Assembly: GCA_002315325.1 (NCBI GenBank)
Contig: DCGU01000054.1
Coordinates: 24,078 to 88,077, forward strand
DNA: 64,000 bases
Source of the DNA: Clostridiales bacterium UBA1770
GTDB lineage: Bacteria; Bacillota; Clostridia; Oscillospirales; CAG-272
Direction: 5' to 3'
Shown here: positions 746 to 56,360 of the stretch, piece by piece
Numbering within the stretch: the first letter of the stretch is position 1
Layout: every line of letters starts with the position of its first letter
Notes under the pieces: generated by a model
What the model was told of the DNA's origin: nothing
The model's input: only the letters and a program-made list of their open reading frames with translations
Databases searched by the model: none
Made by a program: the position numbers and the translations under genes

Positions 746-2761
746 TTACGGCTTGTTTGCCGGTGCACGGCGATTGGTCAAGGCGGACAGCAAAATGCCG
801 GCAGCTAACAACAAGACAAGAATGCCGCCGAAAATCAGCGTCCATTTTTTGGAGGCATTCAGCGGTTCCCTGCCCGTTTTTTGGTCGGTTTTCGTGGGAA
901 CATCCGCCGTGTCGGGCACGTCTGTCGGCGTCACTGCGTCGGTGTCGGTGGCGGTAACGTCGTCGGGCAACGACGGGATATCGGTCCCCGTTACTGTTTC
1001 GTCAAATTCGGTCGGGCCGTCCGGTTGCGTCGGCACGTCCGGCGGCGTCTCATCTTCCGGGAGTGCGGGAATTTCGTATTCTTCCGTATACCCACAAATC
1101 AAACATTCGTTCCACGCCACCCCCGCAATCCCGGGCAACGGTTCACACAATACGGTCGGCGTCCCAAAGACGTGTCCCGCCGGGGGGATGACCGTCGGTG
1201 CAAGAATGACCGCACCGCAAACGGCGCAATGGGATCCTGATGACAATCCTGTTTCTTCACAGGTTGCGGGAACAGCTGCGTCTTTCACTGCCGAATGCCC
1301 GGCTGCAGGCACCGTTTTTTGTGCCGTCAACACCTTTCCGCAATAACCGCAGTGCGTTCCCTCGCCAAGACCCGTATCCACACACGAGGGGGAAACAGCC
1401 GTATCCGTCACCGGCACGTGGCTCAGCGCCGGCACCGATTTTTGTGCGGACAACGTGTTGCCGCAAACCGTACAGCGCGTTCCTTCGGTTAATCCCGCCC
1501 CCAGGCACGTCGGCGAAACTGCCGGCAATATCACGTAGGTATGGGGTATTTTATCCAAAACAACCTGTTTTTTGATGATGGTGCCGCAAACCGAACAGTG
1601 TACACCCTCCGAGAGCCCCGTACCGAAGCAGGTCGGTGTGACCGACGTATCGGTAACAAGCGTATGCCCGGCCATCGGCACGACAACCTGCGACACTGTA
1701 ATTTGTTTACAAACGGCGCAATGGTACCCCTCGGTAAGCCCCGTTTTCAGGCAGGTCGGTTGGAGTGCGGTATCCGTCACGAGTGAATGAACCCCCGTGG
1801 CTTCGACTGTTTGTTGAACAATGAGAATGGCTTTACATACGCTGCAGTGGGCGCCTTCCGTTGCCCCCGCTTCAACACAGGTGGGTTCGACGGCGGAATC
1901 GGTCACTGTCGCGTGTGCCGCCATAGCAACGGTTTGCTGCACGACCAGTACTGCTTTACAAACGCCGCAATGCGAGCCTTCGGTCAGTCCGGTTTTCTTA
2001 CACGTCGGTGCCACGGCGGCGTCAACCACAGGCGTATGCGCCGTCACGTCCACGGTTTGTTGCACGACCAGCACCGCATTGCAAACGCCGCAATGGGAGC
2101 CTTCGGTCAGCCCCGTTTTTTTACACGTCGGTTGAACGGCGGCGTCTGTCACCGTCGTATGAATGCCGGTGGCGGGGAGCACTTCCTGCGGGACGGTCAC
2201 CAACGTACAGGAAGAACAGTGCTGCCCTGCCGTTTTGCCGGATTTGACACAGGTGGGTGCCGCGGCGGCATCGTTTACCATATGATGAACGCCGGTGGCA
2301 AGAATTTCCTGCTGTGCGACAAGGATTGCCCCGCAAACGCGGCAATGACTGCCGGCGGTCAAACCGGGGCTGACACACGTCGGGGAGACAGCGGGGTCGT
2401 CCACGGGGACGTGAATGGTTTTTTTATCGGAACACGGACAATCTGCGCATTTATAGATTACGTAACCGTCCGAGTCCTCCGTTGCGGCAACGGAAGACTG
2501 CACGCCCCAATGATGTTCTTCCCTTTGCGTTGCATTACAGTCCGGGATTTCACAGGCGCGTTCGTGGAGCACGTAAACGTTTTGCTCGTCATTACTTATT
2601 TTATACCAGTCGCTCCATTGATGCGTACCGTCCGGGCAATCTGCCGAAACGGACAACGGCAAACAGACCGCAAAGAACAGCACGGCACAGAAAAAAGAGA
2701 TAAACCACAGTACTTTGCGCAATTGAGTGGCATTTTGATTGTTTTTTCTTATGGGAAGCAC
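746..2761 (-). CDS. Cysteine-rich tandem-repeat surface protein (signal peptide, ~11 x 41-aa H/C3 repeats, acidic P/T/D-rich stalk, C-terminal TM anchor)
   Basis: GTG start after an AAGGGGGA RBS and a signal-like N-terminus. The repeat is (A)GH-x8-PTC-x2-TGLTEG-x-HC-x-VC-x9-V. The C-terminus is WTLIFGGILVLLLAAGILLSAL followed by basic residues. No enzymatic motif recognised. Confidence 0.8.
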   Translation of the reverse strand: MLPIRKNNQNATQLRKVLWFISFFCAVLFFAVCLPLSVSADCPDGTHQWSDWYKISNDEQNVYVLHERACEIPDCNATQREEHHWGVQSSVAATEDSDGYVIYKCADCPCSDKKTIHVPVDDPAVSPTCVSPGLTAGSHCRVCGAILVAQQEILATGVHHMVNDAAAAPTCVKSGKTAGQHCSSCTLVTVPQEVLPATGIHTTVTDAAVQPTCKKTGLTEGSHCGVCNAVLVVQQTVDVTAHTPVVDAAVAPTCKKTGLTEGSHCGVCKAVLVVQQTVAMAAHATVTDSAVEPTCVEAGATEGAHCSVCKAILIVQQTVEATGVHSLVTDTALQPTCLKTGLTEGYHCAVCKQITVSQVVVPMAGHTLVTDTSVTPTCFGTGLSEGVHCSVCGTIIKKQVVLDKIPHTYVILPAVSPTCLGAGLTEGTRCTVCGNTLSAQKSVPALSHVPVTDTAVSPSCVDTGLGEGTHCGYCGKVLTAQKTVPAAGHSAVKDAAVPATCEETGLSSGSHCAVCGAVILAPTVIPPAGHVFGTPTVLCEPLPGIAGVAWNECLICGYTEEYEIPALPEDETPPDVPTQPDGPTEFDETVTGTDIPSLPDDVTATDTDAVTPTDVPDTADVPTKTDQKTGREPLNASKKWTLIFGGILVLLLAAGILLSALTNRRAPANKP
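1058..2413 (-). repeat. Coding tandem repeat, period 123 bp (41 codons), ~11 units
   Basis: Adjacent units reach near identity, e.g. 1932-2007 versus 2055-2130. Boundaries are approximate. Confidence 0.75.
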
Positions 2762-13597: not shown

Positions 13598-14773
13598 TTA
13601 TTGCACGTAATAAAGTTTAATATCGGTCAATTCAAAATCTGCATCCGCATCGGTGATTTCCAAAATCAGACTTCCGAACCAATACGGCGGGATCGTAACA
13701 ATCTGCTTGTGACCGACGGTTTTGCCGTCATACAGATGCATCGTGTCGTCGCCGGCACCGATGGTGAAGGCGTGAATCTTCTCCCCCTGCAAAAGATTTT
13801 CGGACAGCACAACGGTGTTGAGCAGCTGCGGCTGCGCAAGGTGCAGAATAAAGCGGTTGCCCTTTCGTTCCAAGGTATACGGCACGGGGTTGGCAAAGCG
13901 GCGGTCCAGTTCGCGTTTCATACCCACGAGCGCGTCGCAGTCTGCCTGCGGCAGAACACCCTCCCGGTTGGGTCCGATATTCAGCAGCAGGTTATTCCCG
14001 CGGCCGACGCTGTAGTACCACAGGCCGCACAAATCCGCGACAGGGCGCACGAGGTGCTCGTCGCGATCGCTGAAAAACCAGTTGCCGCGGCGCATCTTGC
14101 AGTCGCATTCAAAAGGACGGAACACGCCGCCCGACACGTAGGACGTGCCAAAAGGCGTGATGCCCTCCTCGTTGCCGATCCAATCGGTACCCTGCCCAAA
14201 GCCGAAAATCAAAATGTCGGGCTGCAGACGATGAATTTCCCCCAAGATCCGCGGCCAATCGTATTCGTGGCCGCCGCTGCCGCAGCCGTCAAACCACAAA
14301 TAATCGATTTTGCCGTAATTCGACAACAGCTCCGTCATTTGATTGACAAAATAGTCGTCGTAGGCTTTCGCGTCGACAAAGGCAAAGCCGAACTGCGCCG
14401 GGCTGTAGTATAACCCGATACCGAGACCGTATTTACGGCAGGCGTCGGTAAACTGACGCACGACGTCGCCTTTACCGTTTTGGTACGGCGTGTTTTTGAC
14501 GCTGTAATCGGAATAGGCGGACGGCCAGTTGGCAAATCCGTCGTGGTGTTTGGCCGTCATGACGGCGTATTTTGCACCGGCCTCTTTGATGGTGCGGATC
14601 CACTGTTCACAGTCGATTTTCTCCGGGTTGAATCCGGCCGGTATCATTTCCGCCTCGTGCCCGTCCCAGTCGGTATGCCCCTCGTAAAACGTGCGAATCC
14701 CGAAATGGAAAAAGACACCGAATTCCCAATCCAGGAATTTCAGTTGGTTTTGTGTCGGTTTCGGTTGTGCCAT
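13598..14773 (-). CDS. Alpha-L-fucosidase, GH29 family
   Basis: FGVFFHFG and TAKHHDGFANWPS motifs. ATG 14773 follows GGGGAGGG. Confidence 0.85.
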   Translation of the reverse strand: MAQPKPTQNQLKFLDWEFGVFFHFGIRTFYEGHTDWDGHEAEMIPAGFNPEKIDCEQWIRTIKEAGAKYAVMTAKHHDGFANWPSAYSDYSVKNTPYQNGKGDVVRQFTDACRKYGLGIGLYYSPAQFGFAFVDAKAYDDYFVNQMTELLSNYGKIDYLWFDGCGSGGHEYDWPRILGEIHRLQPDILIFGFGQGTDWIGNEEGITPFGTSYVSGGVFRPFECDCKMRRGNWFFSDRDEHLVRPVADLCGLWYYSVGRGNNLLLNIGPNREGVLPQADCDALVGMKRELDRRFANPVPYTLERKGNRFILHLAQPQLLNTVVLSENLLQGEKIHAFTIGAGDDTMHLYDGKTVGHKQIVTIPPYWFGSLILEITDADADFELTDIKLYYVQ

Positions 14774-14859
14774 AATGCCCTCCCCTATTTGAAATATCAT
14801 TTCTATTATAAAAAAATATCATGGCGGTGTCAACCCCGCATTTTGTTTCCAATCGGATA

Positions 14860-16095: not shown

Positions 16096-17385
16096 TCAAT
16101 AAACGGCGATATCCCGCAACGTTGCACCGTCAACCGTTTTCGTCAGTTCAATCGTGACCGCGGTAACGTTTTTGCCGACAAGCGGCAGGATGCGCTTATG
16201 CCCGATACAATGACCGGTTGCGGCTTCGACACCGTCGAACAGAACGCGGAAACCACGGATGCGGTGCCCCTGTGTCATATCCTCACGCAGCACCACGTAG
16301 GAAATATCGGCGGGGGCCGGCAGCGTGACCGTCTGCGTTAAGCAAGCCGAACCGACGGCATAGCCCCGTCGCGCACCATCGCCAAAGGTATCCTGTAAAA
16401 GTTTACCGAAAGAACGGAACTGCTCTTCGTCCTCAAAACGGCCGTCTTTTCCGATGGCCATACCGAGCAGAAGGTTGGAGTTGCGCCCGACGGAATGCAG
16501 ATAACAATCCAGCAGATGCTTTGCAGAAAAGACGTGGTCGGTCTGTCCCGGTTTCCATGCCCATCCGCCGCCGAATGCCAGATGGTCCCGGTTCGGCATA
16601 TCGGTTTCGGCCGGCGCGTAATAGATGCCGTCCGGGTCACCGCATCCCGCCTCTTCATTCGGCTTTGTTCCGTCAAACCGATTTTCCCCTGCAAAAGTCG
16701 CCGCCCAACAGTCTGCCGGTGCCAGTCCGTCCTCGTTTCCTACCCAGCGGAGATTATGCGGGTACCCCTTCGGTCCCTGGAAGCAAAGTGCATTCGGCTG
16801 ATACTTTTTCAAAATCGGCACGAGATTGGGGCCGCCTTTTTCGAGCGGGACAATGCCGCCGTCAAACCAGATTTCAAACAGGTCGCCGTATTGTGACCAA
16901 AGCTCCGTCACCTGCGCCTCTACGTGCTTCACGTAATCGTGGTACCACGCCGTTGCGAAGGTTTCATCGTTCATCTTCTCATCATTAATACCGTAATACC
17001 CGTTACACCCGGTTGAGTAGTAAAGCCCCGGTTTGAGGCCGTATTTACGGCACGAGGCAATAAAATCCCGAACGATATCGCCCTTGCCGTCCCCATAGGC
17101 ACATCCGGCCACGGAATACGGGTTATCCTTCGTCTGCCACAGTGAAAAACCGGTGCAATGGTTGGCCACCAAGACGGCATACTTGGCGCCCATCTCGTGC
17201 GCGGAACGAATCCACTGGTCGGTGTCCCATCCTTGTGGTGCAAAGCACGACGGCGGCAGCTCGTCCCGAACAGTCGATAATTTGGGGTTGGCCGTCGGGT
17301 TATAAATATCCATCAGGTAATGGATAATGACACCGAGCTCCATATCCTGCCAGATTAATTGTTCTTTGGTTGGTATCGCCGGCAT
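16096..17385 (-). CDS. Alpha-L-fucosidase, GH29 family (second copy, divergent)
   Basis: LGVIIHY and VANHCTGFSLWQT motifs, C-terminal beta-domain. CGGAGGA RBS. Confidence 0.8.
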   Translation of the reverse strand: MPAIPTKEQLIWQDMELGVIIHYLMDIYNPTANPKLSTVRDELPPSCFAPQGWDTDQWIRSAHEMGAKYAVLVANHCTGFSLWQTKDNPYSVAGCAYGDGKGDIVRDFIASCRKYGLKPGLYYSTGCNGYYGINDEKMNDETFATAWYHDYVKHVEAQVTELWSQYGDLFEIWFDGGIVPLEKGGPNLVPILKKYQPNALCFQGPKGYPHNLRWVGNEDGLAPADCWAATFAGENRFDGTKPNEEAGCGDPDGIYYAPAETDMPNRDHLAFGGGWAWKPGQTDHVFSAKHLLDCYLHSVGRNSNLLLGMAIGKDGRFEDEEQFRSFGKLLQDTFGDGARRGYAVGSACLTQTVTLPAPADISYVVLREDMTQGHRIRGFRVLFDGVEAATGHCIGHKRILPLVGKNVTAVTIELTKTVDGATLRDIAVY

Positions 17386-41354: not shown

Positions 41355-43181
41355 TTATTCCACCGTCACGCTTTTGGCCAAATTTCGCGGTTTATCCACG
41401 TCGCACCCGCGCTGCACCGCAAGGCAATAGGCATAATACTGCAAAATAATGACCGCCAAAATCGGCAGCGTCATTTCGTTCGCCGCCGGCAATCGAATCA
41501 CCTCGTCGGCACAGTCCGCGGGAATCTCCATTCCCTGCCCGCACAAAAGAATCACGCGGGCACCGCGTGCCTTGACTTCCTTGGCATTGGACAGGGTCTT
41601 TTCCAAAAGTGCCGCCGACGTGGCAACGACGATACAGGGCACCCCGGGCGTAATCAGCGAAATCGTGCCGTGTTTGAGTTCCCCGGCAGCGTACGCTTCA
41701 CTGTGTACGTAAGAAATTTCCTTGATTTTTAACGCCCCCTCACAGCAAACGGCATAATCCTGTCCGCGGCCGATGAGAAACGCATCGGGAAGATTGCCGT
41801 GCTTTTCGGCAACCGCGGCCGCGCTGTCAAACAGGGCAAACGTTTTTTGCACGTCATCGGGCAGCGTTTCAAGCGCCCGGCAGAGTTCCTGCTCCCGTTG
41901 CGGGGACAACTGTCCGTTTTCATGCGCCAGGCGCAGCGCCAACAGCAGCAGCACGGCAACCTGCGCCGAATATGCCTTGGTGGTAGCCACGGCAATTTCG
42001 GGACCGGAATAGAGATAAATCACGTGATCCGCCTGTCTGGCAATGGACGAGCCAACCACGTTGACAACGGCATACGTCGGCACGCCTTTGGCCTTTGCCA
42101 GCCGCAGTGCCGCCAACGAATCGGCGGTTTCCCCCGATTGCGAAAGGATAAAAACGGCATCCCCCTGTGTAAAAATGGGATTGCCGTACCGGAATTCACT
42201 GGCAATCGCAACCGACACGGGAATGCGTGCCAACCCTTCGATGGCGTGTTTGCCCAAAAGCCCCGCATGCATGGCGCTGCCGCAGGCGACCAACGTCACG
42301 TGCTTGATCTTTTGCAGAGCGTCATTCGGTATTTCCCGCGACAAAATCTCACGAATACCGCCGGCAATACGCCCGCCGACGGCGCGACGGAGCGCTGCGG
42401 GCTGCTCCATAATCTCTTTTAACATAAAATGCGGATAACCGCCTTTTTCGGCACTTTCCTCGTCCCAATCGGCAACAATCACCTGTTTTTGCGCCGTAAT
42501 ATTCTTCCCGGTATCATCGTAAACCGTCACGCTGTCCCGCGTCACGCAGGCAATTTCGCCTGCTTCCGGCAGCAAATACCGCCGCGTGTGTGACAGGATG
42601 GCGGGGATATCGGAGGCAACAAGGTTTTCGCCCGTTCCCAAGCCCAAAATCAGCGGGCTGTCCCGCCGCACAGTCCATATTTCCCCCGGACGATCGGCAA
42701 ACAACACCGCCAGGGCATAGGAACCCTTTATCCGCTGCATGGCTGCCGTCAATGCGGCACGTGCGTCGCCCGTATACGCCTCATCCAGAACGTGCGCCGC
42801 AACCTCGGTATCGGTCTGCGACAAAAACGTACGTCCCTGTGCGAGCAGTTTTTCCTTCAGTTTTGCATAGTTTTCAATAATCCCGTTGTGCACCAGCGTC
42901 ACACGACCGCAGGCGTGCGGGTGTGCGTTCGCGTCAGACGGCTCGCCGTGCGTGGCCCAGCGCGTATGACCGATGCCGACGCACCCCCGTATGGGTTGCC
43001 CGCCGGCAATTTTATCCTTTAGGTTTGCCAGCCGCCCCTGCGCCTTTTCAACGCGTATTCCCTGCGCGGTTACAACGGCAATCCCGGCCGAATCGTACCC
43101 GCGATACTCCAATTTAGACAGTCCTTCCAATAAAATATCCGACGCTTCCTGTGCGCCGGTGTATCCAATGATTCCGCACAT
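41355..43181 (-). CDS. glmS: Glutamine--fructose-6-phosphate aminotransferase
   Basis: MCGIIGY N-terminus (start moved to 43181), two SIS domains and a C-terminal ...KSVTVE. Confidence 0.97.
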   Translation of the reverse strand: MCGIIGYTGAQEASDILLEGLSKLEYRGYDSAGIAVVTAQGIRVEKAQGRLANLKDKIAGGQPIRGCVGIGHTRWATHGEPSDANAHPHACGRVTLVHNGIIENYAKLKEKLLAQGRTFLSQTDTEVAAHVLDEAYTGDARAALTAAMQRIKGSYALAVLFADRPGEIWTVRRDSPLILGLGTGENLVASDIPAILSHTRRYLLPEAGEIACVTRDSVTVYDDTGKNITAQKQVIVADWDEESAEKGGYPHFMLKEIMEQPAALRRAVGGRIAGGIREILSREIPNDALQKIKHVTLVACGSAMHAGLLGKHAIEGLARIPVSVAIASEFRYGNPIFTQGDAVFILSQSGETADSLAALRLAKAKGVPTYAVVNVVGSSIARQADHVIYLYSGPEIAVATTKAYSAQVAVLLLLALRLAHENGQLSPQREQELCRALETLPDDVQKTFALFDSAAAVAEKHGNLPDAFLIGRGQDYAVCCEGALKIKEISYVHSEAYAAGELKHGTISLITPGVPCIVVATSAALLEKTLSNAKEVKARGARVILLCGQGMEIPADCADEVIRLPAANEMTLPILAVIILQYYAYCLAVQRGCDVDKPRNLAKSVTVE

Positions 43182-43279
43182 TATTTTCACCTTTGCCGTA
43201 TAAAAACGGCCCTTTGTCAAGTCAATAAAGCCTGCGGCATTTCGTCAGGGCGACGTTTGTCTGCAGACTTTTTCAATAT

Positions 43280-43426
43280 TCATCATTTCCGTTTGTGCCT
43301 TTGTTGGGCAATTACTTGCCGTTTTTCTCACAAACTCACGGTGAAATGATACCGAAGGGCACCCGCCGAATCTTTCGATAAACCCTTCCCTCGTCAACCG
43401 CGGTGAAATTACGGTCCCGGCGCTAT
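43280..43426 (-). ncRNA. glmS: glmS ribozyme (GlcN6P-responsive self-cleaving riboswitch) in the glmS leader
   Basis: Minus strand reads A/GCGCCGGGACC...GACGAGGGAAGGGUUUAUCGAAAGAUUCGGCGGGUGCCC...AUCAUUUC...GGAAAUGAU. This is collinear with the B. subtilis ribozyme core (AGCGCC, GACGAGG, UAUCGAA, UUCGGCGG, UGCC). The 3' boundary is approximate. Confidence 0.88.
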
Positions 43427-43539
43427 GCAATATCGTCCGCCTCACTTTTATTGTCCGGCAGTCCTGCATTCTTTTTTGCCGCGGCTTTCACTCCTTTCGA
43501 CCCGCGGTGAACGCAATCATTATACGAAATTTGTTCGTC

Positions 43540-49029: not shown

Positions 49030-50537
49030 GCGTCGTCCTCCATCCGCTTTGCCGACAGACCGAACACCGTGAAGTCAATCACACCGGTGCGGAGCCCACC
49101 GCGTTCGTTGATAAAGCGCAGGCGCACCTTTTCGCACGGCACTGCCGGGAACGTATCGTAGGCGATATTCATCTCCGCCGTATTATCCATCTTATCCAGT
49201 ATCGTAAACCACGCGCCATGCGCGTACCCCTGTAGTGCATAGTGAACGGGAGCGGGCAACACCCCCTTGGCATAATCCAAACCGACGTCGCGCCAAAAGA
49301 CGCGCAGGGCACCCACGGCAAAGGAACCCGACAGGTCGCATTCCAGCCACGGTTCGGCATCGTCATCGGCAGGCTGCCAGAAGGACAAATTGTTTTCATC
49401 CGTGGCATAAACGGGATCACGCCCCTCGCGGCTGCTTGACGCAGTCGGGCGGACCGCCGCGCACAGGGAAAGTGCGCCGGGCGTTGCATCCGGCGTCAGT
49501 TTTGCGGGGGAAACACCCGGCACGTATTGCGGCACGTCGCTGACGCCGATGGGACAGTACAACTCGCCGTTTTCGTCCACGTCCACACGGTCCATGCCGA
49601 TGCGGCGCTCGTAGCGATGCAGGTACGGGGCGGCAATCGTGAAAAACGCCCACAGCGTATTGCCCGACCCGTGCTCCACACAGCCGTGTCCGGCACCGGC
49701 CACAATCCCGCCGCGGTGGAAGGTCAAGGGATTGCGCTTTTGCGGTTTGAAGTCGTCCAACGGCGACACGTCGCTGACGTACACCGCCATACAGTAGGAG
49801 GCGTCACAGGTATCGGGTGCGGCGTAAATCAAATAATAGCGGCCGTTGTGCTTGAGCATATGCGGGCCCTCGCACCAACCGAAATCAATCTCTTGGCCAT
49901 ACAGCCCGTGCCGTTCCCAGGGTTTGTTGACCGGATCCATATCGATGAGCGTCACGGGGCCGCGTACAACCTGCCGCGGATTTTCCACGTCCAATTCATA
50001 CCCGATAATGCGCAGGCCGAACCCCTCGAAGGTATCGGGATTTGGGGGGCAGTCCACAGCGTACAGATACAACCGTCCGTCGTCATCGGCAAAAATACCG
50101 GGGTCGCCCGGCACGAATGGCGTGCCGTCCGGCATCATAAAATCGCCGAGTTCCGTGAAGGGGCCCAGCGGGTCGTCCGTCACGTAGAGCGGGCAGCACC
50201 AGGACGTCATCAAATATTTGTCACGCCAACGGCAAATCGTGGGGCTGTATTTGGGATTGTAGGGAGTCGTTCTTTTGTGCTCCCAGTGCTCAAAGTCCGA
50301 CGTCACCCACGCCATACCGTAACTGGGATAGAGATACCATTTGCCGTTTTCGTAAAAGACGGTGGGGTCACTGATGGAACGATAGTCGGGGCCCGTCACG
50401 TTTTCCGGCTTGCCGGTATCACCGAGTATACCGTGCGTTGCGTTCATCCAGTCATCCGTGCCGCGCGGGAGTTCCGGCAGCGACAGGGGGTTGCAATAGG
50501 TATGGAGACAAAAATCTTTTTTCTTTTTTTGATTCAT
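49026..50537 (-). CDS. GH43 family glycoside hydrolase with a C-terminal F5/8-type-C (discoidin/CBM32-like) domain
   Basis: SISDPTVFYENGKWYLYPS beta-propeller motifs and a C-terminal NLSFWQP...ALRVFW. Start moved to ATG 50537. Confidence 0.78.
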   Translation of the reverse strand: MNQKKKKDFCLHTYCNPLSLPELPRGTDDWMNATHGILGDTGKPENVTGPDYRSISDPTVFYENGKWYLYPSYGMAWVTSDFEHWEHKRTTPYNPKYSPTICRWRDKYLMTSWCCPLYVTDDPLGPFTELGDFMMPDGTPFVPGDPGIFADDDGRLYLYAVDCPPNPDTFEGFGLRIIGYELDVENPRQVVRGPVTLIDMDPVNKPWERHGLYGQEIDFGWCEGPHMLKHNGRYYLIYAAPDTCDASYCMAVYVSDVSPLDDFKPQKRNPLTFHRGGIVAGAGHGCVEHGSGNTLWAFFTIAAPYLHRYERRIGMDRVDVDENGELYCPIGVSDVPQYVPGVSPAKLTPDATPGALSLCAAVRPTASSSREGRDPVYATDENNLSFWQPADDDAEPWLECDLSGSFAVGALRVFWRDVGLDYAKGVLPAPVHYALQGYAHGAWFTILDKMDNTAEMNIAYDTFPAVPCEKVRLRFINERGGLRTGVIDFTVFGLSAKRMEDDA

Positions 50538-50675
50538 TGTGGACGTCACCGCCTTTTTGCTTGGTTGACGTCATTATACCACATTTTACGATGCGATACC
50601 ACACCCGCAACTCATTTCATTTTGTCGTCGTTATTCTGCACAAAACACACGCCCGATTTTTGTGCTTTTTATCCA

Positions 50676-50704
50676 TTGGCAGTATCACAAAAATATGATA
50701 AAAT
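50676..50704 (+). promoter_or_regulatory. Extended -10 promoter for the solute-binding protein gene
   Basis: TTGGCA, 17 nt ending in TGA, then TAAAAT. Confidence 0.55.
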
Positions 50705-50762
50705 AATATCGCTTGAAAAAGACACACAAAGCACATTTTACATCATAAACGAGGAGGAACAC

Positions 50763-52319
50763 ATGAAAACCATGCGCAAATTACTGGCTCTCATTCTGGC
50801 GCTCCTGATGGTTGCCGGGACGCTCTCACTCGTTGCCTGCGGCGGCGAAACAGATCCCGAACAAGGCAAAAAGGATGACCCCATCGATACCCCGGATACG
50901 CCGGACACACCGGATACACCGGATACCCCCGACACGCCCGACACGCCTGATACGCCGGATACGCCCGACGATCCCACCGAAACCAAAAAGTACCTGGACA
51001 ATATGCCCGAGACGATGGACTTCGGCGGTGAAACCGTTACGTTCCTCATCAGCAGCGATAACGGAGAAGCAACGTTCGTACTGATTAAAGACGAAAACAA
51101 CTATAACGACGGCGACGCGGTTGAACACGGTATTTATACCCGCCAGCAGAATCTGCAGGAACGTTTGAACGTCACCATGAGTATGGTGGAAGATGAATCC
51201 TCCGGCATCAAGGCTAAAATTCAGGCCGAAATCGACAGTGGTACCAACGATTACGATATCGTCATCGGTGACCTGAAGCAGCACGTCGGCTACTGCATCC
51301 AAAACGGCATTCTGAATATGAACAAGCTGTCGAACGTAGATCTGACGCAAAATTACTGGAACAAAACCTACTCCGATAAATGGGCCTACAAGACTTCCCA
51401 ATATTGGGCTACCGGCGACGCCTCCGGCACGCTGATTAAATTGACAATGGGTATGGTTGTCAACGACGCCCTGTTTGAAAAATACAACTCCGGCGTTGAC
51501 ATCTTTGAGGTTGTCAACAGCGGTGAATGGACCACGGAAAAATTGATTGAATATACGCAGACCTGCTTTGAAGACAAGACCGGTGACGGTGCAACCGAAG
51601 ATGACGTATACGGTCTTCGTTTTGCTAATGCATGGACCACCGGCGGTACGTTTATGCGCGGTGCCGGCTGGGCTTCCACCGTCGAAGGCAAATCCAAATG
51701 GAGCGTTGAACTGGCAGGCGAACACAACCTGGCTGTTTACGAAGCCGTTAACAAAATGCTGTTCCAAAACAACGGCGCTAAGATGGTCAACAGCACAGCC
51801 TTCGGCAATGAGCTGTGCATGATGTGTACTGAAATGCTTGGTGCATTGTCCTCCATGCGCGATTTTACGTTTGATTTCAGCTTCATTCCCTGCCCCAAGT
51901 ACAGTGCGGAAGACGATTACCGTGCCTACACCTTTGAGGGTTTGGGTATCGTCGGGTGTCTCGGCACTCTGCCTGCTGCTAAATACGAAATGGTCGGTGC
52001 AGCAATGGAATGCTATGCATCCATGGGTAAACAGTACGTGACCGAAGGTTACTACGAAATCGCTCTGCGTACCAAATACGCCCGCAACAGCGGTTCCTAC
52101 AAGGCCATCGAACTCGTCCACGACGGTATCTGGGCCGATATGGGCTTTGCATGGTGCGGTTCCCTTTCCGAAATTGACACTTGGATCACCGGTGTTATCT
52201 GTTCCCAGAGAAACTTGGCAAGCGCTGCTGCATCTGATCAAGCAGCCTACCAAAAACTGCTGGATCAGGTTTATACGAACCTGAAGAAACAGAACGACAA
52301 GGATAAAGAAGCAGGTTAA
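50763..52319 (+). CDS. ABC-transporter extracellular solute-binding lipoprotein (family 1, carbohydrate-type), orphan
   Basis: GAGGAGG RBS and lipobox LSLVACGG, then a (DTP)n linker and a large SBP body. The upstream part of the 930-aa track ORF is antisense to GH43 and I discarded it. Confidence 0.82.
   Translation: MKTMRKLLALILALLMVAGTLSLVACGGETDPEQGKKDDPIDTPDTPDTPDTPDTPDTPDTPDTPDTPDDPTETKKYLDNMPETMDFGGETVTFLISSDNGEATFVLIKDENNYNDGDAVEHGIYTRQQNLQERLNVTMSMVEDESSGIKAKIQAEIDSGTNDYDIVIGDLKQHVGYCIQNGILNMNKLSNVDLTQNYWNKTYSDKWAYKTSQYWATGDASGTLIKLTMGMVVNDALFEKYNSGVDIFEVVNSGEWTTEKLIEYTQTCFEDKTGDGATEDDVYGLRFANAWTTGGTFMRGAGWASTVEGKSKWSVELAGEHNLAVYEAVNKMLFQNNGAKMVNSTAFGNELCMMCTEMLGALSSMRDFTFDFSFIPCPKYSAEDDYRAYTFEGLGIVGCLGTLPAAKYEMVGAAMECYASMGKQYVTEGYYEIALRTKYARNSGSYKAIELVHDGIWADMGFAWCGSLSEIDTWITGVICSQRNLASAAASDQAAYQKLLDQVYTNLKKQNDKDKEAG
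50886..50966 (+). repeat. 9-bp coding tandem repeat GAYACNCCN (Asp-Thr-Pro), about 8-9 units
   Basis: Read directly. It encodes the post-lipobox linker of the SBP. Confidence 0.85.
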
Positions 52320-52471: not shown

Positions 52472-53110
52472 ATGAAAACAATTTTATTTATGGGCGACTC
52501 CATCACCGACGTCGGCCGCAATACCAATAACGGCAGCCAGATTTCCATAGGACAGGGATATCCCCTGCTCGTTACCGGCCGCTTGGGCGTCAAATACCCC
52601 GGGCAGTTCAACTTTGTCAACACCGGTGTCAGCGGCAACCGCGTGGTCAACATTTACGCCCGCATCAAGGCGGACGTGTGGAACTATGCCCCTGACGTAC
52701 ACAGCATCCTGATCGGTGTCAACGACGTATGGCACGAGCTCAACGGCAACGGCGTGGAAAACGACCGTTATGACGCCGTATACCGCATGTATATCAGCGA
52801 CACCTTAAAGCGCTTCCCCAATATGAAGATCATTATCATGGAGCCCTTCGTGCTGCACGGCAGCGCCACCGACGAGCATTGGGATATGTTCGAGCCGGAA
52901 GTGGCCCTGCGCGCCGCAACGGCCAAAAAGATTGCCGCCGACTTTGGCCTATCCTTCCTGCCGTTGCAGAAGATGTTTGACGATGCCTGCAAGATTTGCC
53001 CGGCAAGTTACTGGCTGGCGGACGGCGTGCATCCGACGCCGGCGGGGCATCAGTTGATTGCAGATGCGTGGCTAGATCTTTTTGAGAAAGAAATTGTGAA
53101 GGGGCTGTAA
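52472..53110 (+). CDS. SGNH/GDSL hydrolase (esterase/lipase)
   Basis: FMGDSITD (block I), GVSGN, GVND and DGVHPT blocks. Start moved to ATG 52472. Confidence 0.88.
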   Translation: MKTILFMGDSITDVGRNTNNGSQISIGQGYPLLVTGRLGVKYPGQFNFVNTGVSGNRVVNIYARIKADVWNYAPDVHSILIGVNDVWHELNGNGVENDRYDAVYRMYISDTLKRFPNMKIIIMEPFVLHGSATDEHWDMFEPEVALRAATAKKIAADFGLSFLPLQKMFDDACKICPASYWLADGVHPTPAGHQLIADAWLDLFEKEIVKGL

Positions 53111-53308
53111 AAAAAGCGCCGACCGGAAAAGCAGATTTATTATTTTGTTTTATTACGTGCAACGCTTGTTGTTTTCAAGATTTTTTCATCTCTTTAAGAG
53201 ATAGCGGTATAAGACTTGCTTTTCCTACCGCCGTTTCCCTCCCTCGCAGTACAGAGTACAGCTAACGGGAGGGAGAACGACGCTTCTGCATCTTTTTTTC
53301 CAAGCCCC
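53101..53308 (-). repeat. Structured inverted-repeat element, copy A (208 bp, inverted relative to B-D)
   Basis: Aligns end to end with copies B-D. One terminus (GGGGCTGTAAAAAAAG) overlaps the last 3 codons and stop of the GDSL gene. Confidence 0.85.
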
Positions 53309-53311
53309 TTC

Positions 53312-53341
53312 GGAGCTGTAAAAAAGCGCCGACCGAAAAAA
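53312..53341 (+). repeat. Solo copy of the element terminus (GGAGCTGTAAAAAAGCGCCGACCGAAAAAA)
   Basis: Near-duplicate of 53102-53131, located immediately after copy A. Confidence 0.7.
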
Positions 53342-53358
53342 CTCTTTTCTCAGATATT

Positions 53359-53402
53359 AAAAAGGTGTTGGTAAAACGATTGTTTTACCAACACCTTTTT
53401 TG
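53359..53402 (+). terminator. Intrinsic terminator (probably the original GDSL-gene terminator, now displaced)
   Basis: AAAAAGGTGTTGGTAAAAC/GTTTTACCAACACCTTTTT stem. Confidence 0.75.
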
Positions 53403-53415
53403 CTAACGCTTTTAT

Positions 53416-53619
53416 GGTGCTAGGGAAAAAAGTGGCAGAATCGTCGATCTTCCAACGCCAGACGTACCCAAGTACGTCAAGTGGGAAATCGGCGATAGGA
53501 AAAGCGCGTCTTTGAGCGTGATTTCTTATATTTTATAATCAAGTTGAAGACGCAACAAGCATTGAACAAGATATAAATAATCTTTTGGCTTTTCCGATCT
53601 GACCTTTTTTCACAGCACC
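53416..53619 (+). repeat. Structured inverted-repeat element, copy B (204 bp, most divergent)
   Basis: Termini are GGTGCT...AGCACC. It ends 2 nt from the stop codon of the S51 peptidase gene. Confidence 0.85.
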
Positions 53620-53621
53620 TA

Positions 53622-54371
53622 TCATTTTTTCTTGGGATAAATGTACGGCCCCTTCCCGTCAGGCATATGCAGCACCAGCGGTTCCTTCTGCAGGTCGTGG
53701 AGTGCGAAGCCCTCGTTGATGGGGAGATAGTAGGCCGTGTGGGCGGGGTTACGGTGGGAGTCGATGACTTCATAGGTACCGTCGACGAAGGCAACGGCAA
53801 TGTCGTTATCGACGCCGAGGCCGTCGTATTCCTGCATCCAAACGTCCTTGGGGAAGCCGGTCCAGTCCTCGTAGTGCGGGCACATGCAGTACGGCAGGAT
53901 ATCCAGGCCGCGCAGCAGGCAATACTGGCCGTTGTCGTAGGTGTTATCGTAGGCATACTTGAACCAGGAGTGTGCACCGGCACTCTGTCCTGCGCAAACG
54001 ACACCGTTTTCATACGCCTGTTTCAAATACACGTCGGCGTGCGTTTTGCGCCAGGTATCCAGCAGGAACTTGGTGTCTCCGCCGCCGCCGTAAATGACAG
54101 ACGCGGAGAGAATCGTTTCACGGATCTGCTCCTCGGTCAGGTTGGGATCGGTCAGGCAGAGATAGTCCACCTGCACGAAGCCGTGGCGCTTGAAATAATC
54201 CGTAACGATCGGTTCCTTATCGCGGTCGTCGCGGCCTGCCGTCGGCAGGTACACGGCACGCATGCCGTTTGCACGGCGGGTGTCGTCCACCAAGGAAATA
54301 ATATAATTTAAGATAGGATCTTCCTCATTTTCAAAAAAGATACCGCCGCTGCCGGCCACAAATTTACCCAT
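53622..54371 (-). CDS. Peptidase S51 (dipeptidase E / cyanophycinase-like) family protein
   Basis: IYGGGGDT and AGQSAGA nucleophile region. Confidence 0.75.
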   Translation of the reverse strand: MGKFVAGSGGIFFENEEDPILNYIISLVDDTRRANGMRAVYLPTAGRDDRDKEPIVTDYFKRHGFVQVDYLCLTDPNLTEEQIRETILSASVIYGGGGDTKFLLDTWRKTHADVYLKQAYENGVVCAGQSAGAHSWFKYAYDNTYDNGQYCLLRGLDILPYCMCPHYEDWTGFPKDVWMQEYDGLGVDNDIAVAFVDGTYEVIDSHRNPAHTAYYLPINEGFALHDLQKEPLVLHMPDGKGPYIYPKKK

Positions 54372-54422
54372 AGTTTTTCTCCTTTATTTTCTGCGGTTCA
54401 CGGAAATACACCGCATCCGCTT

Positions 54423-55178
54423 TTATTTCAAAATGATTTCCGCCCGAATCGGGAAATGGTCGGAGGCGATTTGCTTAACGACCTCGTAGGAGGCGACGTC
54501 AAAATCGTCCGAAACAAAAATATAATCCAAACGCAAATAGGGATTCCATGCACAGAAGGTACAGTCGGTATTGCCCGTCACCTGTGCAGCACTCGATAGG
54601 CGCGCAAACAACGGTGCAAGAATCGCGTCGTCCGGTTGTGCATTGAAATCACCGAACAGCACCGTCGGCATTTTTTCGCGGTCCAACAGGGCGACAAGGC
54701 GGTCCATCATGCGCTCCTTTTCCTGCAGGTTGAGGCCGAAGTGCGTAGCGATAAAGCGAACGGGTTTGCCCGCCACGTCAAGTTTGACACACAGAATCAC
54801 GCGGTCCTCGTACCATTCGTTCTCGTCGGGACGACGCTCGTCCCCCACGGGAGCCGGCACCGGTATGGCCTCCGCCGACAAAATCGGATAGCGTGACAAT
54901 ACGCTGTTGCCGATATCGGAACCCCACGGGAACATGGCACCGCGTGCAAACTGATAAAACGGATAGCCGCTCCGCTCCGCCAATTTCTCCGTTTGCTGTG
55001 TCCAGCTTTCCTCTCCGATAGAGTAGACCTCGTTGAGTCCCACAACGTCGGCACGCATATCGCGAATAACGCGCGCCGTTAAGTCAATATCCACTTTCTG
55101 CTCGTTTTCACGGTCGTTTGACGTCAAATAGTCAATACAATGGCTGATATTAAAAGTGGCAACCGTCATTTTGGTCAT
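54423..55178 (-). CDS. Endonuclease/exonuclease/phosphatase (EEP) family protein
   Basis: VATFNI, GLNEV, GDFN and C-terminal ASDHFPI motifs. ATG 55178 follows GGGAGG. Confidence 0.82.
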   Translation of the reverse strand: MTKMTVATFNISHCIDYLTSNDRENEQKVDIDLTARVIRDMRADVVGLNEVYSIGEESWTQQTEKLAERSGYPFYQFARGAMFPWGSDIGNSVLSRYPILSAEAIPVPAPVGDERRPDENEWYEDRVILCVKLDVAGKPVRFIATHFGLNLQEKERMMDRLVALLDREKMPTVLFGDFNAQPDDAILAPLFARLSSAAQVTGNTDCTFCAWNPYLRLDYIFVSDDFDVASYEVVKQIASDHFPIRAEIILK

Positions 55179-55209
55179 TGGCTGCACCTCCCATCATTGA
55201 ACTTAGGAT

Positions 55210-55238
55210 ATTATAATAAATATCGAGTATTATTTCAA
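55210..55238 (-). promoter_or_regulatory. sigma-70-type promoter for the EEP-S51 operon
   Basis: Minus strand reads TTGAAA, 17 nt, TATAAT. Confidence 0.6.
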
Positions 55239-55287
55239 CAAGTTTTTACAAAACTGCCTTTTTGCACGCATCATTTTTCTGCCAATA

Positions 55288-55540
55288 GGGGCTAGGAAAA
55301 AAAGATGCAGAATCGCCGTTCTCCCTCCCACTAGCTGTACTGAGTACTGCGTGGGAGGCCAGCGGAAGGGACCCCCGCAATGCACGAACGTGCGTTGTGG
55401 GGATACGCAGACGGCGGTAGGAAAAGCACGTCTTTTTACGTGATTTCGTTTGCTCAATATATTTATGAGATATGCGTATAGTGTTGCACAAGATATACTA
55501 TACTATCTATGCTTTTCCGGTCGGCGCTTTAATAAGCCCC
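55288..55540 (+). repeat. Structured inverted-repeat element, copy C (253 bp; carries a 53-nt nested hairpin insertion)
   Basis: Same architecture as A, B and D, with an extra segment at 55359-55411. Confidence 0.85.
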
Positions 55541-55541
55541 A

Positions 55542-55749
55542 GGGGCTAGGAAAAAAGGAGTCAGAATCGTCGTTCTTCACCCCGTTAGCTGTACATCCGT
55601 ACTGCGAGGGGTGAAAACGGCGATAAGGAAAGCACGTCTTTTACCTTGATTTCGTTTACTGATTTTGACATATATAATTACATTAAGTGTTGACCAAGAT
55701 AAAACAAATCATTCTTTGCTTTCCTGGTCTGGCCCTTTTTTACAGCCCC
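55542..55749 (+). repeat. Structured inverted-repeat element, copy D (208 bp)
   Basis: Abuts copy C with a 1-nt gap. Its terminus CTTTTTTACAGCCCC overlaps the last 3 codons and stop of udk. Confidence 0.85.
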
Positions 55750-56360
55750 GTTATTTTATCCTTTAGTAAAGCCCACAACATCCCAAACGCCGCCTCATTC
55801 TTCCCGCCCTGCCGGATGATGATATCCGCATACTCGCGTGAGGGTGCCACGAACAGGTCGTGCATGGGTTTGACGGTGGTTTCATATTGCAATAAAATGG
55901 ACTCCAGTGAACGCTGCCGCTCTACCATATCGCGGCGAATGCGGCGAATCAGGCGGATATCGTCGTCGGTATCCACGAATACCTTAACGTCCATATGGTC
56001 CCGCAGCCGCTCGTCGGCCAAAATCAAAATACCGTCGATAAGGATAACGGGCTTGGGCTCAATCCGCACGAATTTGTCGGAGCGGTTGTGTATTGTAAAA
56101 TCGTATACCGGGCAATCCACGGCCTCGCCCCGCTGCAGCGCCTCCAAATGCGTCAAAAGCAGTTCGGTTTCGTAAGCGTCGGGATGGTCATAATTGACCT
56201 TGGCGCGCTCGTCGTAGGTTTTACCTACCTGGTGTCGGTAATAATTGTCGTGATAAATCAGGGCAACGTCGTTGCCGAATGCGGCAACGAGACGGTCGGT
56301 CAGCGTTGATTTGCCGCTGCCGGTACCGCCGGCGACGCCGATAATCAGGGGTTTCTTCAT
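55740..56360 (-). CDS. udk: Uridine kinase
   Basis: P-loop GVAGGTGSGKST and a DHPDAYE region. Confidence 0.92.
   Translation of the reverse strand: MKKPLIIGVAGGTGSGKSTLTDRLVAAFGNDVALIYHDNYYRHQVGKTYDERAKVNYDHPDAYETELLLTHLEALQRGEAVDCPVYDFTIHNRSDKFVRIEPKPVILIDGILILADERLRDHMDVKVFVDTDDDIRLIRRIRRDMVERQRSLESILLQYETTVKPMHDLFVAPSREYADIIIRQGGKNEAAFGMLWALLKDKITGL

Follow-up and report, generated by a model that had tools for sequence, protein, structure and literature searches.

A family of branched, structured repeats clustered at gene ends in Clostridiales bacterium UBA1770, possibly recognised as a folded single strand

A 64,000-nucleotide stretch of contig DCGU01000054.1 of Clostridiales bacterium UBA1770 (hereafter the window) contains a family of non-coding elements of about 205 nt, represented by four copies and a fragment within a single locus of 2.65 kb. 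The family is confirmed as a genuine structured repeat with good covariation, and its conserved feature is the branched fold, not the sequence of its core. It is an element of the structured intergenic repeat kind, similar to miniature inverted-repeat transposable elements (MITEs), stands outside every named family tested and is apparently undescribed. The interpretation favoured here, with moderate confidence, is that of a lineage-specific, non-autonomous element that is recognised as a folded single strand.

The four copies, designated A (53101-53308, minus strand, 208 nt), B (53416-53619, plus strand, 204 nt), C (55288-55540, plus strand, 253 nt) and D (55542-55749, plus strand, 208 nt, used as the reference for the fold), align end to end with one architecture, as confirmed by reading positions 52800-56100 and by a repeat finder. 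A sequence profile of the four recovers each with an E value between 1e-55 and 2e-61 (A, 8.5e-59; B, 1.2e-55; C, 1.3e-57; D, 2.3e-61), and the covariance model scores them at 195-232 bits (A, 214; B, 205; C, 195; D, 232). The sole extra profile match in the 64-kb window is a partial copy of 32 nt (53312-53343, minus strand), which repeats the gene-proximal terminus GGAGCTGTAAAAAAGCGCCGACCGAAAAA, that is, the last ~30 nt of the element, and lies head-to-tail with A, 3 nt past its far end. An earlier note on this DNA, prepared from the sequence only, had described a family of four copies with inverted repeats at the termini, a branched fold and a core rich in A and T. That description is borne out, and the note's inventory is correct for the four full copies and their coordinates but overlooked the fragment.

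Terminal inverted repeats (GGGGCTAGGAAAAAAAG ... CTTTTTTTACAGCCCC) are present in all copies, and each copy carries GAAAAAAAG on the 5' side and CTTTTTTT on the 3' side of its stable structure. The 17-nt 5' terminus occurs four times at no more than 3 mismatches, against 0.18 occurrences expected. Overall, the copies are 65-73% identical. The most diverged is B (65-69% identity to the others), in which many of the changes are compensatory, for example GGTGCT...AGCACC at its ends. The 3' terminus of C is degenerate (TTTAATAAGCCCC). C and D are arranged head-to-tail with a 1-nt spacer, while A and D form an inverted outer pair whose 33-nt arms are 82% complementary.

RNAalifold applied to the four copies yields a three-way junction of 51 pairs, composed of a closing stem and two internal helices; the closing stem with two internal hairpins that the earlier note predicted is thus recovered. 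The long closing stem (P1) comprises GGGGCU paired with AGCCCC, an internal loop, an A7/U7 helix and an irregular G+C helix; P2 is a hairpin with a conserved tip (GUAC..GUAC); and P3 is a 9-bp stem (GGAAAAGC / GCUUUUCC) around an AT-rich loop of ~80 nt. In copy D these parts follow one another as the 5' strand of P1 (55542-55565), P2 (55566-55624), the 5' strand of P3 (55626-55634), the AT-rich core (55635-55716), the 3' strand of P3 (55717-55725) and the 3' strand of P1 (55728-55749). In the inverted copy A, the order on the window is the 3' strand of P1 (53101-53122), the 3' strand of P3 (53125-53133), the core (53134-53216), the 5' strand of P3 (53217-53225), the P2 hairpin (53227-53284) and the 5' strand of P1 (53285-53308). 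The extra length of copy C is a single insertion of 49 nt on the 3' side of P2 (55358-55406, plus strand; alignment columns 72-120), which forms a 13-bp hairpin of its own (CCCCGCAATGCACG..CGTGCGTTGTGGGG). A conserved box beyond the core (box v, found three times against 0.00 expected) had been described as the inverted complement of a box preceding it (box iii, CGGCGRTARGRAAAGCNNGTCTT); the complementarity is perfect but covers only 9 bp.

Support for this fold comes from the pattern of substitutions. Standard pairs fill 96.5% of the cells of the 51 pairs, compared with 43-49% when the partners are slid by 1-3 columns. Changes on both sides are found at 13 of the 51 pairs, compared with 4.5 +/- 1.6 in column shuffles (none of 500 reaches 13) and with 0-1 pairs in the slid-partner controls. 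The covariation covers P2 and P3 as well as the termini, including the outer GGGGCT/AGCCCC clamp. Between copies, the paired parts are 71-90% identical and the AT-rich core 47-63%. Copy D folds at -79.5 kcal/mol (z = -7.8). The covariation support is therefore clear, where the earlier note had named a lack of structural support among the outcomes that would speak against the family.

The fold also differs between the two strands. All 8 wobble cells, distributed over 5 independent columns, are T.G on the forward strand of the element (5'-GGGGCTAGG...) and none is A.C. In each of the four copies the forward strand folds more stably than the complementary one, by 3.8-12.1 kcal/mol with RNA parameters (forward/complement: A, -72.6/-68.8; B, -74.6/-64.5; C, -96.5/-86.2; D, -79.5/-67.4) and by 7-9 kcal/mol with DNA parameters. 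Together, the wobble bias and the stability difference indicate that the fold has been selected on one strand. For every adjacent gene, this better-folding strand is the antisense strand: the plus-strand GDSL-lipase gene is followed by A, the minus-strand S51 peptidase gene by B and the minus-strand udk gene by D, which in turn is followed by C. The antisense position, combined with the lack of a conserved promoter (see below), fits single-stranded DNA better than RNA.

The main rival interpretation is that the copies are paralogous structured RNA elements, which spread locally long ago, are no longer mobile and are kept in place by selection, either as cis-acting structures of 3' untranslated regions (UTRs) or intercistronic regions that affect mRNA decay or processing, or as antisense RNAs to the flanking 3' ends. 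Compensatory changes, a U.G pair conserved in three of the four copies, an insertion that is itself shaped as a hairpin and constrained helices that adjoin a free loop make up the typical signature of a functional RNA. Each copy lies where flanking transcripts pass, either between a stop codon and a terminator or between udk and the EEP promoter, and the low copy number and clustering suit local paralogues. There is precedent in bcr1, a repeat of Firmicutes, and in ERIC-type repeats, which are transcribed and show compensatory changes (PMC3184786). However, the flanking mRNAs carry the strand with the poorer fold, in which the 8 wobble cells become A.C mismatches, while the better-folding strand has no conserved promoter and no Rfam match. 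In addition, a sister species carries the same genes without A and B, which are thus not needed for these genes. This alternative is accordingly regarded as possible but doubtful.

The stop codon of the lipase gene (TAA, 53108-53110) lies inside the terminus of copy A (GGGGCTGTAA), that of udk (55740-55742, minus strand) inside the terminus of copy D, and that of the S51 gene (53622-53624) 2 nt outside the 3' end of copy B. The lipase and Udk proteins both end in Gly-Leu, encoded with the stop as GGG CTG TAA; the C-terminus of Udk is of normal length when compared with 11 homologues, and without copy A the lipase frame would read into the TAA of the 53312-53343 fragment. When the terminus is read on the strand of the gene, one frame of three stops at once, and this is the frame found at A and D; the other two continue for ~33 to 54 codons (copy A). 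Selection against long tails would therefore be enough to explain the in-frame stops. The 5' end of copy C is 110 nt upstream of the EEP start codon and beyond the predicted promoter of the EEP-S51 operon (TTGAAA-17-TATAAT, 55238-55210, minus strand), which lies outside the copy.

No open reading frame (ORF) common to the copies was found by six-frame translation of the four, in which indels shift the frames, and no promoter is conserved in them: isolated matches of non-equivalent quality occur in B and C, and a weak match (9/12) lies just upstream of C only. Free-standing small RNA genes are made less likely by the missing conserved promoter or terminator and by the way in which the copies abut stop codons. 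The earlier note had left open a mobile element, a structured small RNA or both. The difference in presence between the two species, described below, favours mobility.

It is also conceivable that the elements are large bidirectional intrinsic terminators or insulators that multiplied locally between convergent and tandem genes. The A run and the T run border a very stable, branched structure rich in G+C, and three copies begin at a stop codon. Yet the convergent lipase and S51 genes already have a canonical bidirectional terminator, located between the fragment and copy B (53359-53400), which is a perfect hairpin with a 19-bp stem flanked by A5 and T5, and the sister species makes do with a hairpin of this type alone. 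A terminator scan finds no site at the element ends; the T7 run does follow the inner closing helix but is paired with the A7 run inside P1. Covariation of the outer clamp implies that the selected molecule reaches past the T run. A terminator function is thus quite unlikely. Separately, the covariance model weakly aligns the 53359-53400 terminator plus the fragment as a "mini" copy (53312-53410, 13 bits).

The most informative comparison is provided by two contigs (L019 and L020) drawn from two members of a protein cluster of S51 sequences at 90% identity. Their nucleotide identity to the window is 78-80% in the S51 gene and 72% in the lipase gene, values that place them in a sister species. 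L019 shows the lipase and S51 genes in the convergent arrangement of the window, but their stop codons are only 70 nt apart and the spacer holds a plain terminator (A run, 14-bp stem, T run), whereas the corresponding stops in the window are 511 nt apart and enclose A, the fragment, the terminator and B. The lipase ends ..HILR in the sister species and ..EIVKGL in the window, a difference that fits insertion at the stop codon. The element-free spacer of 70 nt, an informative empty site, means that A and B either inserted in the UBA1770 lineage or were lost precisely from the other. Apart from this the gene order is unchanged, and L020 shows that EEP lies directly upstream of S51 in the sister species too. 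Since EEP-S51 and the lipase gene are neighbours there without A and B, the elements did not carry the operon into this locus. The arrangement that the earlier note described as "bracketing" a two-gene operon is thus incidental, with neither a functional meaning nor that of a composite transposon.

Similarity among the copies does not follow their arrangement. The closest pair is A and C, which are inverted and 2 kb apart (identity of 89% over the structured 5' half and of 90% over the 3' end), whereas the adjacent C and D share 79% and 71%, respectively; simple tandem or segmental duplication would not produce this pattern. It fits copies derived from different sub-lineages of a family, as well as gene conversion between old paralogues. 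These data bear on a further possibility, namely that a composite mobile unit bounded by A and D brought in EEP-S51, or else that the four copies are a functionless local segmental duplication. The complementary, inverted arms of A and D at the outer edges are what a composite unit would show, but the operon predates A and B, judging from the sister species. Decay of a functionless duplication would not leave 96.5% pairing or 13 compensated pairs, and duplicated segments should be most alike where adjacent, which they are not (A-C exceeds C-D). Either version is hardly credible.

More distant loci place this arrangement in a narrow clade. The next-closest S51 gene after that of the sister species (79% identity, on ENA contig L012) follows a beta-lactamase-like gene and has neither EEP nor an element nearby, so that the EEP-S51-lipase arrangement is confined to such a clade. 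S51 loci at 79%, 63% and 61% identity all have other contexts and no element. One more candidate (P0171/L021) proved to be an unrelated contig.

The favoured interpretation, a mobile element recognised as a folded single strand, may be put as follows. An element of ~205 nt without coding capacity would insert at the 3' ends of genes, at or no more than 2 nt from the stop codon and upstream of the terminator. By analogy with attC sites, IS200/IS605 elements and REP/REPIN sequences, its folded single strand would be the substrate of a recombinase or transposase encoded elsewhere and acting in trans. New copies would preferentially settle next to the terminus of a copy already present, giving head-to-tail pairs and a local cluster; once inserted, they would be passively co-transcribed in 3' UTRs and probably tolerated, since a stop in frame is provided at once by the terminus (..GGG CTG TAA). 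Mobility would explain the difference in presence between the two species as well as the similarity pattern. Covariation next to a free core would result from selection acting on the mobility of master copies, and single-stranded DNA would explain why the bias falls on the strand absent from the flanking mRNAs. We infer all three components: that the element moves, that its substrate form is single-stranded DNA and that an enzyme acts on it in trans.

Several observations weigh against this interpretation. The copies are old and diverged, with no recent insertion among them, and a further copy is absent from the other ~60 kb of the window and from ~20 kb of flanking sequence; it is unusual for a mobile element to form a "family" at a single locus. 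As the earlier note had stated, the window has no transposase, integrase or reverse transcriptase, and the surrounding 15 kb or so contain neither a transposase nor a recombinase. With only one outgroup, the sister lineage may have lost A and B instead of the UBA1770 lineage having gained them. The G.T bias is based on 5 columns (p about 0.03, one-sided), and the constant orientation to genes on three independent sites (p about 0.25), which is not significant alone. Finally, the sequences flanking A (GAA/TTC), B (TAT/TAT) and the C-D pair (ATA/GTT) contain no consistent target-site duplication of 2-9 bp, although duplications of 3-5 bp could have been eroded at this level of divergence.

Among known elements, the closest in behaviour are bacterial MITEs and structured repeats such as Correia/NEMIS of Neisseria, RUP and BOX of pneumococci, bcr1 of Bacillus cereus and ERIC/IRU of enterobacteria, which are non-coding sequences of 100-400 bp with terminal inverted repeats and stable folds, lie intergenically at gene ends, may extend ORFs at the 3' side and vary in position between relatives (PMC3184786). 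The element resembles them in its small size, its terminal inverted repeats around a non-coding core, its stable fold and its position at gene ends. It differs from them in having no sequence relation to any, in forming a three-way junction with a free loop instead of a simple long hairpin, in its strand-specific covariation and in its distribution (four copies and a fragment at one locus, 65-73% identical and not near-identical, with no partner insertion sequence known). In contrast to bcr1, which has a target-site duplication of 5 bp, the element has none.

An ordinary MITE, moved as double-stranded DNA by a DDE transposase bound to the terminal inverted repeats, with eroded duplications and a fold that is a by-product of palindromy, would account for terminal inverted repeats of 17-25 bp, the small size, the AT-rich non-coding core, positions at gene ends that extend ORFs and the absence from the relative. 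All of these are standard features of MITEs (PMC3184786), and copy B is flanked by TAT...TAT. Covariation that reaches P2 and P3, together with compensatory change within the termini (GGTGCT/AGCACC in B), is, however, unexpected if the ends are to keep a protein-binding sequence, and a double-stranded mechanism leaves no room for the strand asymmetry. No consistent 2-9 bp duplication is seen at A, B or C-D, and no parent insertion sequence was found. This origin is considered improbable.

REP sequences and their BIME and REPIN assemblies are palindromic, lie downstream of coding regions with a preference for gaps between convergent or co-directional genes, and are often paired or clustered. 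Their transcription is plausible, and folded single strands are considered the form in which they are recognised (PMC3733652, PMC3184786). Individual REPs are 20-40 bp long, carry an unpaired GTAG or CGTC tag and reach high copy numbers (PMC3733652). Gene-end placement and paired arrangement are shared with these sequences, which are mobilised by RAYT proteins of the Y1 type. Membership was rejected: the element is 204-253 nt long, branched and, in the available sequence, low in copy number, its termini (GGGGCT/AGCCCC) have no tag, and no RAYT gene is in view.

The likeness to attC sites of integrons lies in conservation of structure over sequence, location at the 3' end of genes, a length varied through a variable terminal structure, and an internal loop between two short terminal helices. 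In an attC site it is the strand complementary to the adjacent ORF that folds, and the same is true of A, B and D. The termini lack RYYYAAC and GTTRRRY cores, no integrase is in the window, the adjacent genes are on both strands, the sister species has the genes without the elements, which are therefore no components of gene cassettes, and the element is much larger than attC sites; an integron origin was thus rejected. With the ends of IS200/IS605 elements and their ~200-bp non-coding derivatives (PATEs), the element shares the lack of a target-site duplication and strand-specific folding, in their case of a single-stranded DNA substrate. IS200/IS605 elements lack a terminal inverted repeat, carry a similar sub-terminal hairpin at each end and use a fixed target of 4-5 nt, 3' of which they insert. 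Derivation from them was rejected as well: the termini of the element are inverted repeats of one another and pair, P2 is the only sub-terminal hairpin, and the 5' flanks (CCGAA, TTTAT, CAATA and CCCCA) have no common motif or tetranucleotide.

Transposons of the Tn3 family have 38-bp inverted repeats of the form GGGG...ACGYTAAG and generate a 5-bp duplication. The ends of the element also start with GGGG, but positions 31-38 read CGTTCTCC (5') and GCAGATTT (3') and no 5-bp duplication is present, so that a Tn3-derived miniature was set aside. A type I toxin-antitoxin system of the Sib/Ibs kind, which would call for a conserved small hydrophobic ORF with a ribosome-binding site and for an antisense RNA driven by a promoter of its own, was set aside in the same way, as the copies have no shared ORF and no conserved promoter. 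A tRNA- or tmRNA-like element, considered in view of the acceptor-like GGGGCU end, was also rejected: ARAGORN finds no such gene in 52500-56200.

At gathering thresholds, Rfam 15 returns only glmS and two tRNAs over the whole window, and at E <= 10 the interval 52900-55900 yields only a chance match of 15 bits to the Na+ riboswitch model inside a copy; the earlier note's failure to recognise an Rfam family thus stands at both thresholds.

Searches for further copies gave none with the nhmmer profile over the window, four contigs of the same strain and two extensions of about 10 kb, and none with covariance model R1 over 145 kb, 23 kb (filters off) and 33 kb. Box iii has one chance match in 185,579 GTDB species genomes, and a relaxed form of it has six chance matches in JGI metagenomes; the latter is a weak negative, as the scan missed two JGI contigs that carry the locus, the collection being incomplete or masked for the element region. 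Three pattern scans of viral contigs gave nothing or chance matches only, blastn of C-D against plasmids and phages gave no match, comparison of spurious ORFs from A and C with protein collections gave nothing relevant, and a full-text literature search for the terminal sequences gave no relevant paper. In two Logan assemblies of the same strain (L002 and L003, positions 1-115), the contig breaks inside copy C; the repeat family thus interrupts short-read assembly at this locus.

If the element is an enzyme substrate, it would mark an uncharacterised system of single-strand recombination or transposition in a deep, uncultured branch of gut-type Clostridia, and would be a clean case of a mobile element that inherits structure and not sequence. 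If it is an RNA instead, it would be a new structured RNA of ~200 nt with unusually good covariation from four copies. There is a modest chance that it represents a new class of strand-specific, structure-recognised mobile DNA in Clostridia or a new family of antisense RNAs. In the former version, a three-way junction of ~205 nt, formed by the strand opposite to the adjacent ORF, would be inserted at stop codons or at the termini of existing copies by a recombinase, with no target duplication, and could amount to a system akin to attC or REPIN in which the substrate has a novel architecture. On the practical side, metagenome assemblies break at the copies, which also change the annotated C-termini of two genes. 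The weight of the finding is limited by the data being one locus in one uncultured organism.

The window is otherwise ordinary core chromosome, with genes for MutS, MutL, MiaB, IleRS, LspA, MiaA, QueA, Fba, GlmS, RNase Y and TGT, and a nucleoside-salvage cluster lies to the right of the element locus. The top non-self matches of udk (60-63% identity) are in metagenome-assembled genomes of the Oscillospiraceae type. The nearest recombinase is a serine recombinase located ~9 kb past the right end of the window and roughly 17 kb from copy D (L014, 1366-2358, about 8.8-9.8 kb beyond the window; 330 amino acids, with Resolvase and Recombinase domains). Its neighbours are AAA-ATPase and Clp-protease genes, and no link to the elements is shown.

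Just upstream of the lipase gene lies a gene for 518 amino acids without a Pfam domain (~50760-52319, plus strand), which is overlapped by long ORFs on both strands (49527-52319, plus; 50826-52253, minus). A glmS ribozyme (43281-43435, minus strand, 86.7 bits) is directly upstream of the glmS ORF (41355-43220, minus strand), consistent with a Firmicute or Clostridia chromosome. Two paralogous alpha-L-fucosidase genes (13598-14800 and 16096-17385, both minus strand) are 2.6 kb apart and share stretches of 70% DNA identity. Near the left end of the window, an ORF of 671 amino acids without a Pfam match (746-2761, minus strand) contains seven copies of a periodic repeat of ~123 nt, or 41 amino acids, at 1350-2278, with 61-71% identity between them.

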